Shown here: positions 50,165-54,664 of the stretch, piece by piece
Position numbering within the stretch: the stretch's first letter is position 1
Layout of the letters: the number at the start of each line of letters is the position of its first letter
From: Escherichia phage SholemSchwarzbard
DNA length: 64,000 nt
Sequence record: PP925840.1
Reading direction: 5' to 3' (one strand)
Translations under genes and position numbers: made by a program
The notes under the pieces: model-generated
Seen by the model: the letters and a program-made list of their open reading frames with translations, nothing else
Told to the model about the DNA's origin: nothing
Databases searched by the model: none

Positions 50165-53100
50165 ATGGCTACTTTAAAACAAATACAATTTAAAAGAAGC
50201 AAAACCGCAGGTGCACGTCCTGCTGCTTCAGTATTAGCCGAAGGTGAATTGGCTATAAACTTAAAAGATAGAACAATTTTTACTAAAGATGATTCAGGAA
50301 ATATCATTGATCTAGGTATTGCTAAAGGCGGTCAAATTGATGGAAATGTGACTATTGATGGAACTTTACGCGTCAATGGACCAATAAACAACTTTGGAAA
50401 TTTTTCTACAAGTGGTACTATTACGGCAAGTAATATTGTTTCTGCTACAGTATTCAGATCAACATCCGGTTCATTTTATACAAGAGCAGTAAATGATACA
50501 TCAAATGCCCATCTTTGGTTTGAAAATACAAATGGATCGGAGAGAGGTGTTTTATATTCAAAACCACAGTCTGAAAATGAAGGCGTAATCACAATGCGTG
50601 TTCGTCAAGGAACCGCAGCAGGGGCTCAAAATTCAGAATTTCATTTCATTTCTACTGATGGTGGTATTTTCCAGGCACGTAAATTAACTGCTTTAACTTC
50701 TATTAGTACACCAACTATTAGTGTTAATTTAATTAATCATGATTCTAAAGCCTTTGGGCAATACGATTCACAATCGTTGGTTCAGTATGTTTATCCTGGA
50801 ACCGGTGAAACTAACGGAGTAAACTATCTTCGTAAAGTTCGTGCTAAATCTGGCGGCACTATGTGGCATGAAATCTGTACAGCTCAGACTGGACAAGCTG
50901 ATGAAATGTCATGGTGGACTGGTAATACTCCTCAATCTAAACAGTATGGTATTCGTAATGATGGCCGAATAGCTGGCCGTAATAGCCTTGCATTAGGTAC
51001 ATTCACTACGGGTTTCCCGTCTAGTGATTATGGAAATACTGGGGTAATGGGTGATAAGTATCTTGTTCTCGGTGACACTGTAACTGGTCTGAAATATATT
51101 AAACAAGGTGTTTATGATTTAGTTGGTGGAGGTTATTCCGTTGCATCTATTACGCCTGATAGTTTCCGTAGTACTCGTAAAGGTATATTTGGTCGCTCAG
51201 AAGATCAAGGTACAACATGGACTATGCCTGGAACGAATGTTGCATTTTTATCAGTTCAAACACAGGCTGATGAAAACGCTGCTGGAGACGGCCAGACACA
51301 TATTGGCTATAACTCAGGCGGAAAAATGAACCACTATTTCCGTGGTAAAGGCAAAACTAATATTAATACTCAAGAAGGCATGGAAGTTAACCCGGGTATT
51401 CTTAAAATAGTAACCGGTGCAAATAATGTAATGTTTTATGCTGACGGAACTATTTCTTCTGTTCAACCAATAAAGATAGATAATGAATTATTTTTTAGAT
51501 CAAATACTAATAATTCTGGTATAAAATTTGGCGCTTCTTCTTCTATAGATGGAACTAAGCAAATTATATGGAATGGTGGTACAAGGGCTGGACAAAATAA
51601 AAGCTACGTTACCGTTAAAGCGTGGGGTAATGCTTACAGCGCGGGTAGTGATAAATCTCGTGAAACAGTTTTTGAAGTTGGTGATGGACAGGGGTATCAC
51701 TTTTATTCACAACGCGTAGCTCCCGCTTCAGGATCTACTGTCGGGCCTATTCAATTCAGAGTTAACGGTGGTTTATTGACTTCAGGCAGTATTGTTGCTT
51801 CTGGTTCTATTACAACCGAATCTTCTTTGAGTGTTAATAATGGCATGTTAGTAAACGGTGAATTAAAGGTCGGCGGTACTGCAGATAACTTCCGTATTTG
51901 GAACGCTAAATACGGTGCTATTTTCCGTCGTTCAGAAGATTCCTTGTATATAATTCCTACACCCATTAACCAAGGCGAAAGCGGTGGAATAACCGATATA
52001 AGACCATTCAGTATTAACCTTGGAACTGGCTCCGTTGTAATGGGTAACCATACTCAAGCGGGTAAAAACCTTTTCACGGTTGATAACGTTTCTAAATTAG
52101 TACAAACTGATGTTCGTTTCCGTGTTAACATGGATTCCGACGGTATTGTTTTGAATGCTTCTTCTCAAGCAGCGTCTAACTTTATCCAAGGACGTAAAGC
52201 AGATGTTACGAAATGGTATTTAGGTATTGGCGATGGCGGAAACGTCGTTCGTATGCATAATTACACCTATTCACATGGTATTGCATTAAATTCTGATTCT
52301 GTCGATATTACTAAGCCTCTTAAAGTCGGAAACGCCCAACTAGGAACTGACGGTAATATTACCAATGGTTCAGGAAACTTTGCCAACTTAAATACCACGT
52401 TAAATCGTAAAGTTAATTCTGGATTTATTACTTATGGAGCAACTGCTGGATGGTATAAGTTTGCAACAGTAACAATGCCACAATCCACTTCGACGGTCTT
52501 CTTTAAAATAGCCGGTGGTTCTGGATTTAATAGCGGATTATTCACACAATGTAATATTGCCGAAATTGTTTTACGTACTAGTAATGAAAGACCTGCTGAC
52601 TTAAATGCTGTATTATACACAAGAACAATTGGATCTGCATTTAAAGATATTGCAGTTAATAACGTCTCTGGAGATACATATGACATTTATGTTTCTGCTG
52701 GAACATATTGCAATCAATTAACTTGTGAATGGACATGTACTGAAAACGCTACTGTTAGTGTTATTGGTATTAACTCATCTACACAATCGCCTGTAGATGC
52801 TCTTCCAGACACAGCAGTTAACGGTCAAGTTGCTAATGTTCTTAATAACTTAGTTGATCGCGGTAAAGTTAAGCGTTATGAAGCCGATTCTGAAATAGCT
52901 ATTAATAACCAAACCGGTATTCGTATCAGAAGCAACAGCGATAAAACTGGTTCTGTTGCTACAATGCTACGAAATGATGGCGGTAGTTTTTATATTCTGT
53001 TTACAGATAAAAATGCCACCGATGGCGCAGCAACTGTTAATGGCGATTGGAATAGTAAACGTCCTTTCGCAATTAACTTAACAACCGGCGAAGTGATGAT

Positions 53101-53848
53101 GAATAATGGCATAGCTGTTCGCAGCGCTGCTTTATTCTATAATAGCATAAACGTCAAAGATAATGGTTCTATTAACTTTGATAAATCAGGCGCTAACCCG
53201 AGAAATATGAGAATATTTCATGCTGGCGATGCTTCTCGCGGTAACCGTATTGAAATTGCCGATGAAACTAACTATATTGCTTACTTTGAAAAAGCTCCAG
53301 GTGGAGCTAACCGCTTTGTAGTAAATAATGCTACTGTAGCTGGTGTTAATCAAATGAATTCATTTGGTATTAACATCAATAACGCGCTTGGTGGAAATAG
53401 TATAGCATTTGGTGATAATGACACGGGTATTAAGCAAAACGGCGATGGATTATTAGACATTTATGCGAATGGTGTGCAAACGTTCCGTTTCCAAAACGGT
53501 GATTTGTACTCATATAAAAATATAAATGCCCCAAACGTTTATATTCGTTCTGATATTCGCTTAAAATCTAATTTCAAACCTATCGAAAATGCACTTGATA
53601 AAGTTGAAAAACTCAATGGTGTCATTTATGATAAAGCTGAATACATCGGTGGAGAGGCAATTGAAACTGAAGCGGGTATTGTGGCTCAAACGTTACAAGA
53701 CGTTTTACCAGAAGCTGTCCGTGAAACAGAAGACAGCAAGGGTAATAAAATACTCACTGTTTCTTCTCAAGCCCAGATTGCTCTTCTGGTTGAAGCTGTG
53801 AAAACACTTTCTTCTCGTGTAAAAGAACTTGAATCTAAACTTATGTAA
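50165..53848 (+). CDS. 37: Long tail fiber distal subunit gp37 (T2-type, with C-terminal intramolecular chaperone domain)
   Basis: 1227 aa; fibre repeats; C-terminal about 100 aa from SDIRLKSNF... resemble self-cleaving chaperone domains of tailspikes and fibres. Confidence 0.93.
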
Positions 53849-53878
53849 AAGAGGGCCGAAGCCCTCTAAGGATTTTTA

Positions 53879-54664
53879 ATGGCAATTGTAGGTGTTCCTG
53901 GCTGGATTGGTGAATCTGCCGTGAATGAAACTGGACAACGTTGGATGGATGCTGCAATGAGAGCAGTCCGTGTTTCAGTTCCCGGTTGGATGAGCTCAAT
54001 GGCCGGACAATCTAAAGAAGTATATTACAGCATTGGTGCTAGTAATTCTTATAATAAAGATACATTAATAAACTGGATAAAAGCACAAGGGTCCACGCCT
54101 GTTGTTATTACTATTACAGGAAATATCGTTTCTTCATCAGCGGGTCAACCATGTTTAGATTTTCCTAGTTCATTAACTAACTCATATGTAACGCTTAATA
54201 TTAATTCGGGTGTACATGTCTGGGGTCGTGGTGGTAATGGCGGAAATAATTCTGCAGGTGGCGCAGGTGGTACTGCTATAAACAATGCAATAGGAACCAG
54301 ATTACGTATTAACAACAATGGGGTTATCGCAGGAGGCGGTGGTGGCGGGGGAGGCGGATATTATTCTCCTTTTTCACAAATGAGATTAACCTTTGGCGGT
54401 GGTGGCGGTCGTCCATTTGGTGCTGCTGGCGGGTCTGCTAATATGGAACAGGGCGCTACTGCTGGTACTATTTCTGCACCTGGTAAAGGGTCTGTCAATG
54501 GTATCTATAATGGCGGGAATGGCGGTGATGCTGGTGCCGCAGGTGGTAAATGTAATATTCGTGGGCAAGGATCAGAATATAACGGCGGGGCGGCTGGTAA
54601 AGCTGTTACTGGTAATGCTCCAACTTGGACTAAAGTTGGTACAATATACGGTTCAAGAGTATAA
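53879..54664 (+). CDS. 38: Receptor-recognising adhesin gp38 (T2/K3 type)
   Basis: 261 aa; glycine-rich islands (GGNGGNNSAGGAGG, GGGGGGGGG, GGNGGDAGAAGG) alternating with variable segments. Confidence 0.9.
   Translation: MAIVGVPGWIGESAVNETGQRWMDAAMRAVRVSVPGWMSSMAGQSKEVYYSIGASNSYNKDTLINWIKAQGSTPVVITITGNIVSSSAGQPCLDFPSSLTNSYVTLNINSGVHVWGRGGNGGNNSAGGAGGTAINNAIGTRLRINNNGVIAGGGGGGGGGYYSPFSQMRLTFGGGGGRPFGAAGGSANMEQGATAGTISAPGKGSVNGIYNGGNGGDAGAAGGKCNIRGQGSEYNGGAAGKAVTGNAPTWTKVGTIYGSRV

Follow-up and report, generated by a model that had tools for sequence, protein, structure and literature searches.

Genes 37 and 38 of the T4-like Escherichia phage SholemSchwarzbard (PP925840.1) raise the question of what kind of tip its long tail fibre carries, which receptor that tip would bind, and whether the tip reached its backbone by an unusual acquisition. 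We analyzed a window of 64,000 nucleotides (nt) from this genome, in which gene 37 (50165..53848) encodes gp37, the distal long-tail-fibre subunit, as a precursor of 1227 amino acids (aa), and gene 38 (53879..54664) encodes gp38, a monomeric tail-fibre tip adhesin of 261 aa. Both open reading frames (ORFs) start at ATG and appear in the ORF list with the coordinates and lengths given by an earlier, sequence-only reading of the window (the original prediction), and all features of the fibre locus described here lie on the + strand. That reading proposed a T2/K3-type host-range module set in a T4-like backbone. Our analysis indicates, with a probability of roughly 90%, that a T-even long tail fibre of the adhesin-capped type known from T2, T6, K3 and S16 has its distal half encoded in this region and works by the mechanism proposed below.

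An adhesin-type gp38 on a predicted cleavable gp37

The nature of the tip is decided by the family to which gp38 belongs. Residues 47-261 match the Pfam family GP38 (PF05268, phage tail fibre adhesin; 1.4e-71, 241.2 bits, cut-off 25), residues 1-42 match Gp38_N (PF21721; 8.2e-18, 64.6 bits, cut-off 25), and the protein matches phrog_2056, annotated as "tail fiber protein; host specificity" (2.3e-104). The crystal structure of gp38 from Salmonella phage S16 (6F45_D) aligns to residues 8-259 at 1.4e-48, and 9v85, an sfGFP fusion of the PP01 gp38 receptor-binding domain (PMC12892980), aligns to residues 39-261 at 2e-32. The original prediction had staked its adhesin assignment on the comparison with the T4 gp38 chaperone; that comparison yields no alignment (BLASTP E=20), which rules out a T4-type chaperone identity, and phrog_105 ("tail fiber assembly"), which T4 gp38 matches at 6.4e-45, has no match in the gp38 studied here. 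Judged by homology to two solved gp38 structures, which settles the family, gp38 is of the adhesin type represented by T2, T6 and S16.

The architecture of gp38 follows that of these adhesins. An attachment domain of residues 1-45 (53879..54013, boundary approximate) carries the tryptophan prongs W9, W22 and W37, which align with tryptophans of S16 in the 6F45_D alignment; in S16 gp38, three tryptophans of the attachment domain dock into the gp37 tip (PMC6851490). The receptor-binding domain, residues 116-240 (54224..54598, boundary likewise approximate), consists of glycine-rich motifs and hypervariable loops. Glycine makes up 32.9% of residues 116-261 versus 9.6% of residues 1-115, with runs of nine (G152-G160) and five (G173-G177), several GG pairs, and variable stretches between them, which bears out the earlier description of glycine islands parting variable segments. 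Across 10 adhesins, the glycine motifs are kept and the loops between them vary. In the attachment domain, gp38 is 98-100% identical to T2, Sf22 and Bas45 and 67% identical to T6. Since residues 1-45 are T2-like and the receptor-binding domain resembles those of T6 and of Bas39 (Escherichia phage FriedrichMiescher, MZ501066), gp38 is, at the level of sequence, a protein whose docking end is T2-like and whose binding end is T6-like.

The partner protein has the features of a fibre that matures by cleavage. gp37 belongs to phrog_1699 (E=0) and contains the Pfam domains gp37_trimer, Gp34_trimer-like and Peptidase_S74, the last of which (PF13884; 3.4e-15, 56.5 bits, cut-off 22) spans residues 1129-1186 at the extreme C-terminus; the S16 gp37 tip (6F45_A) aligns with residues 1071-1225 at 2.9e-11. 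The autocleavage motif xVYIR^SDxRLK is present as NVYIR^SDIRLKS, with the serine at residue 1129, and VYIRSD.RLK is invariant across the gp37 proteins of T2, T6 and K3. The corresponding sites in homologues are DLNVS^SDRRIKK in S16 and DVYIR^SDGRLKI in the fPS Tequatroviruses (PMC7917993). Because the motif matches the S16/fPS site, we predict that gp37 cleaves itself at R1128^S1129, leaving a mature protein of 1128 aa and releasing a fragment of 99 aa.

Along its length, gp37 can be divided into four parts. Residues 1-411 (50165..51397) form the N-terminal, gp36-proximal shaft, a patch identical to phage KRT47 in 100-nt bins, whose 50-aa bins are about 50-96% identical to T4 at the aa level. 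Residues 412-645 (51398..52099) are a shaft patch for which nt and aa searches found no close sequenced relative, and within which a Gp34_trimer-like domain (PF21446) occupies residues 496-617. Residues 646-1128 (52100..53548) would make up, in the mature fibre, the distal shaft and the tip to which gp38 docks, and residues 1129-1227 with the stop codon (53549..53848) the C-terminal intramolecular chaperone. In protein comparison with T4 gp37, the two proteins are collinear and well conserved to about residue 650, beyond which there is no meaningful similarity. The best full-length matches among phage records are Sf22 (78.5% aa) and K3 (76.9%).

Gene identities, domains and motifs, as well as the similarity patterns and breakpoints described in the next section, are read directly from the sequence, and from them we infer a mechanism. 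Late transcription of genes 36, 37 and 38 would probably start at the TATAAATA site at 49460. The C-terminal intramolecular chaperone of gp37 (residues 1129-1227) would help the protein to trimerise and may then detach itself by cleavage at R1128^S1129, which would leave a hydrophobic tip exposed. Into this tip a single gp38 monomer would insert W9, W22 and W37, for a 3:1 assembly of gp37 and gp38. By analogy with S16 and PP01, the C-terminal half of gp38 could fold as a three-layer polyglycine-II sandwich formed from its glycine-rich motifs and displaying the hypervariable loops, and these loops would bind the predicted primary receptor, Tsx.

Two signals bear on the expression of these genes. 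The T4-type late-promoter consensus TATAAATA occurs as an exact match at 49460..49467, 24 nt upstream of gene 36, and a second exact copy lies at 44393, upstream of gene 34. From what is known of T4 we take this sequence to function as a late promoter, and the position of the copy at 49460 makes it the likely start of the 36-37-38 late transcript; the absence of enrichment of the consensus across the window (11 matches versus 8.7 expected) weighs against that use. In the 30 nt that separate genes 37 and 38 is a hairpin (53850..53867; 7-bp stem and tetraloop, minimum free energy -12.5 kcal/mol) that gives a terminator-like match and is closely followed by the gene 38 ribosome-binding site AAGGA. 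It is annotated in K3 and G8 as a stem-loop or potential terminator, and its stem is maintained in T6 and Bas38 through compensatory changes. It is tempting to speculate that the hairpin attenuates expression of gp38 below that of gp37, in keeping with the 1:3 stoichiometry. As a separate observation, the stem (AGAGGGC...GCCCTCT) is the same in the window as in K3, T2, Bas39, Sf24 and G8, while the loop is CGAA in the window and TTCG in those phages. The two tetraloops are exact reverse complements of each other, the outcome that an inversion or a template switch across a perfect inverted repeat would give.

A mosaic allele among adhesin-type phages

The setting of the module is that of a canonical T-even long-tail-fibre operon. 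Gene 38 lies directly 3' of gene 37 and upstream of the holin gene t, and the order 36-37-38-t is found likewise in T2, T6, Sf24 and Bas39. The window as a whole is, as had been noted from its gene content, close to T4: it is collinear with T4 positions 105,345-168,903 (gene 23 to rIIB), the nt identity being about 90-97%. Homology to T4 at the nt level ends at 51723 and returns at 54671, upstream of holin t. The block in between (51724..54670; 2,947 nt, local blastn against T4), which runs from about codon 520 of gene 37 to 6 nt past the gene 38 stop, is the largest in the window without T4 nt homology. T4 thus shares the gene order, flanks that are 90-97% identical, and nt homology over gp37 residues 1 to about 520, but T4 gp37 (1026 aa, the length that the original prediction had correctly given) has a receptor-binding needle tip of its own, and T4 gp38 (183 aa), a Tfa-like chaperone, is unrelated to the gp38 studied here and absent from the virion.

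Whether this block marks an acquisition depends on the phages with which it is compared. Many Tequatroviruses, among them KRT47, vB_Eco_EL, Ge15, PinkRuby and Sf24, share 96-98% nt identity with the flanking backbone, and adhesin-type gp38 is present in all backbone relatives whose fibre locus was examined, including the close relatives KRT47, Sf24 and PinkRuby. An adhesin-type gp38 occurs in 757 phage records and a T4-type gp38 in 297, several of the latter being entries of T4 laboratory strains, and the arrangement of T4 has been described as the less common one (Trojet 2011, PMC3157838; the authors of the S16 structure, PMC6851490). Because the backbone relatives carry adhesin-type modules and the adhesin type is in the majority, sequence comparison gives no sign of an unusual acquisition: T4 is the outlier, and the fibre-tip block without T4 homology reflects this, not a gain made by this phage. 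The idea of a T4-like backbone with a mosaic tip acquired by recombination therefore stands as regards mosaicism, which we find among adhesin-type alleles, and falls as regards T4 as the point of reference.

We mapped the mosaic by a 100-nt sliding comparison against 14 phages and a protein version in 50-aa bins. From the C-terminal half of gp36 to about gp37 residue 411 (49700-51399), every 100-nt bin is 100% identical to KRT47. The shaft patch that follows (51398-52099, gp37 residues 412-645) finds its best match in Shigella phage TB004, at 84.3% nt and 82.1% aa, and its second-best in G8, at 76.6% nt and 76.9% aa; megablast, blastn and tblastn against the phage collection returned nothing closer than TB004. 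Further along the shaft, 52100-52199 is 100% identical to vB_EcoM_G8, the distal shaft (52300-53399) is 93-100% identical to JLBYU22, JK38, K3 and Bas39, and the gp37 tip, chaperone domain and gp38 (53400-54664) are mostly 97-100% identical to Sf24, with two bins at 95% and 90%. On these patterns, natural recombination has pieced the module together from at least five donor-like segments, and breakpoints fall within gene 37. As far as sequence similarity tells, the donor-like segments all come from other adhesin-type Tequatroviruses, and the visible recombination is among adhesin-type alleles. The label T2/K3-type is a fair one in this light, with gp37 residues ~746-1050 at 93-99% nt identity to K3 and the gp38 attachment domain at 98% identity to T2. 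The public assembly index records neither the exact gp37 nor the exact gp38 protein, and we regard the module, by these comparisons, as a new mosaic allele of a well-characterised system, the combination of alleles itself being unrecorded.

The closest known systems each resemble a part of this allele. Shigella phage Sf24 (MF327008) has a gp38 that is 99.6% identical at the aa level, with one difference (R169K), and matches the window at about 98-100% nt from 53400 to the end of gene 38 and on into the backbone downstream, but its gp37 is 1287 aa long and residues 51-1000 are at 20-88% aa per 50-aa bin. In Bas39, gp38 is 97.7% identical overall and gp37 residues 751-1227 are 92-100% identical, whereas most of gp37 residues 51-700 is unrelated (16-94% per bin) and four of the six gp38 differences fall in the beta-helix part, residues 86-102. 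T6, whose gp38 is the classical Tsx adhesin, shares the length of 261 aa and loops such as YYSPF(S/P)QMRLTF and CNIRGQGSEY; it differs in the attachment domain and in the beta-helix (33% identical), and its gp37 of 994 aa is mostly unrelated past the first 50 residues. K3 resembles the window in gp37, above all over residues 751-1227 (88-100% per 50-aa bin), and T2 shares the attachment domain and the cleavable gp37 C-terminus but has a gp37 of 1341 aa and a gp38 receptor-binding domain that is 50% identical. The receptors of these two phages are FadL/OmpF for T2 and OmpA for K3 (Trojet 2011, PMC3157838). The gp37-gp38 tip of S16 (PDB 6F45) is the structural template, with the tryptophan prongs and glycine motifs conserved, although S16 belongs to another genus, targets Salmonella OmpC, and has different hypervariable loops and a different cleavage motif.

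The predicted receptor and alternative readings

To predict the receptor, we aligned gp38 with adhesins of known specificity, namely those of T6, T2 and the BASEL phages Bas39, Bas43, Bas45 and Bas38. Over the receptor-binding domain (residues 116-240), gp38 is 98.4% identical to Bas39, 81.6% to T6 and 69.3% to Bas43, all of which use Tsx, as well as 69.8% to Bas45 (OmpA), 50.0% to T2 (FadL/OmpF) and 48.4% to Bas38 (OmpF). For Sf24 (99.2%) and for Sf22 and KRT47 (50.8%), no receptor was found. The primary receptor of Bas39 has been experimentally determined as Tsx (Maffei et al. 2021, supplementary table), and its receptor-binding domain differs from that of the window at two positions only, A137G and R169K, with R169 being the residue of T6 too. 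The T6-type set of hypervariable segments is present in gp38, all loops being of the same type as in T6 and Bas39 in the alignment. Tsx is used by adhesins with T6-like hypervariable segments (Trojet et al. 2011, PMC3157838); the receptor can be predicted from Gp38 phylogeny, and the commonest predicted target is Tsx (Lutz et al. 2025). Since the gp38 loops match those of Tsx-dependent Bas39 and of T6, we consider it quite likely that the primary receptor of this predicted adhesin is the E. coli nucleoside channel Tsx. The receptor candidates listed by the original prediction (OmpA, OmpC, OmpF and FadL) leave out Tsx, the receptor to which these loops point. We set aside T2-like (FadL/OmpF), OmpA and OmpF specificities, whose receptor-binding domains are just 48-70% identical.

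Several observations weigh against Tsx and suggest that gp38 could use another receptor, or Tsx together with OmpA or lipopolysaccharide as phage PST does, and that it might also widen the host range to Shigella or Yersinia through a different outer-membrane protein. A few substitutions in hypervariable segments 2 and 3 can shift or broaden the specificity of a T6-like adhesin, and in the T6-like phage PST they add recognition of OmpA (Trojet 2011, PMC3157838). Type-1 OmpA adhesins cluster close to the Tsx binders in phylogeny (Lutz 2025), and in the receptor-binding domain an identity of 69.8% is still shared with Bas45, which binds OmpA, and one of only 69.3% with Tsx-dependent Bas43, so that identity and receptor do not correspond one-to-one. 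Moreover, the nearest allele, at 99.6%, comes from Sf24, a Shigella flexneri phage for which no receptor was found. Yet the receptor-binding domain lies only two residues from that of Bas39, with R169 as in T6, and at the neighbouring positions Q167 and M168 are the residues of T6, not the variants of PST. We therefore regard a different or dual receptor as rather unlikely.

Two other readings concern the module itself. The patchwork could be an assembly chimera of a mixed T-even population and not a single natural recombinant genome, as suggested by the abrupt switches between long runs of 100% identity (KRT47 over 49700-51399, G8 over 52100-52199, JLBYU22/JK38 over 52300-53399 and Sf24 from 53400) and by the lack of a record of either exact protein. 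However, both ORFs are intact and in frame over every junction, and 51398-52099 matches no sequenced phage above 84.3% nt, which means that the sequence was not stitched from known genomes; mosaicism of this kind is, besides, the documented norm at this locus (Trojet 2011, PMC3157838), and we consider an artefact very improbable. The reading in which gp38 would be a T4-type assembly chaperone, with gp37 itself bearing the receptor-binding tip, draws on gene order only, gene 38 occupying the same slot as in T4. Against it stand the BLASTP comparison given above, the placement of the two gp38 proteins in different PHROG and Pfam families, and a gp37 C-terminal half that is unlike the T4 needle tip and ends in a predicted cleavable S74 chaperone, and we give it practically no credence. 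An adhesin-capped fibre with a probable affinity for Tsx is thus the reading that we retain.

Other features of the window and significance of the module

Upstream of gene 37, Pfam searches identify gp34 (44435-48304), gp35 (48313-49428) and gp36 (49491..50156; Phage_T4_gp36, 2.4e-45), the hinge connector joined to the gp37 N-terminus, and downstream of gene 38 the holin t (54696-55352). Residues 58-127 of gp35 match the Pfam family ILEI (interleukin-like EMT inducer; 3.4e-08, 34.3 bits, cut-off 27), a name that one would not expect for a hinge protein of the tail fibre. gp37 contains an internal repeat, 'FRRSE-x-YIIPT...RPFxINLxTG', at residues ~586-626 and ~934-979 (nt ~51920-52042 and ~52964-53101), a module also common to gp34; Pfam Gp34_trimer marks two stretches in gp37, and a secondary BLASTP match aligns residues 934-979 with T4 gp37 residues 596-637. 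In the record of Shigella phage JK38, gene 37 (501-4992) is annotated as two overlapping coding sequences, 501-3221 and 3208-4992, which suggests a frameshift or sequencing error.

Elsewhere in the window, two intact tandem genes for Alt-like ADP-ribosyltransferases of 685 aa and 698 aa (Pfam PF03496, phrog_802) lie at 16728-20885 on the - strand, where T4 has one alt gene and the remnants alt.-1 and alt.-2; within this region, 16748-18101 is without nt homology to T4. The mobile elements that T4 carries in the collinear stretch, namely segD, segE, the nrdB intron with I-TevIII, mobE, the td intron with I-TevI, and segG, are all absent from the window, with junctions near 1177/1238, 6293/6313, 34015/34018, 34682/34738, 37837/37842 and 42132/42168 (gaps in T4 coordinates set against the T4 annotation). 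Small ORFs on the - strand at 30145-30465, 38435-38782, 39383-39628 and 39640-39972 stand in segments without T4 nt homology and match the function-unknown PHROGs 2364, 1928, 3183 and 3566, the last of them (39640-39972) being a DUF7247 protein.

What is unrecorded about the module is the combination of a 234-aa gp37 shaft patch, whose relatives reach at most 82.1% aa, with a K3/JLBYU22-like distal shaft and a Sf24/T6-like adhesin bearing R169. It is conceivable, though we think it quite improbable, that this combination confers a host range unseen in its relatives, such as dual recognition of Tsx and OmpA or Shigella-specific recognition. The practical use of these results lies in annotation and in phage-therapy work. 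If Tsx is needed for infection, mutants that have lost Tsx would resist the phage, and in view of this predicted need, it should be combined in cocktails with phages whose receptor is OmpA, OmpC or OmpF. For the family, our breakpoint map adds one more case of recombination inside gene 37 and where genes 37 and 38 meet; the understanding of T-even tail fibres is unaltered by a module whose arrangement is well known and carried by most T4 relatives.

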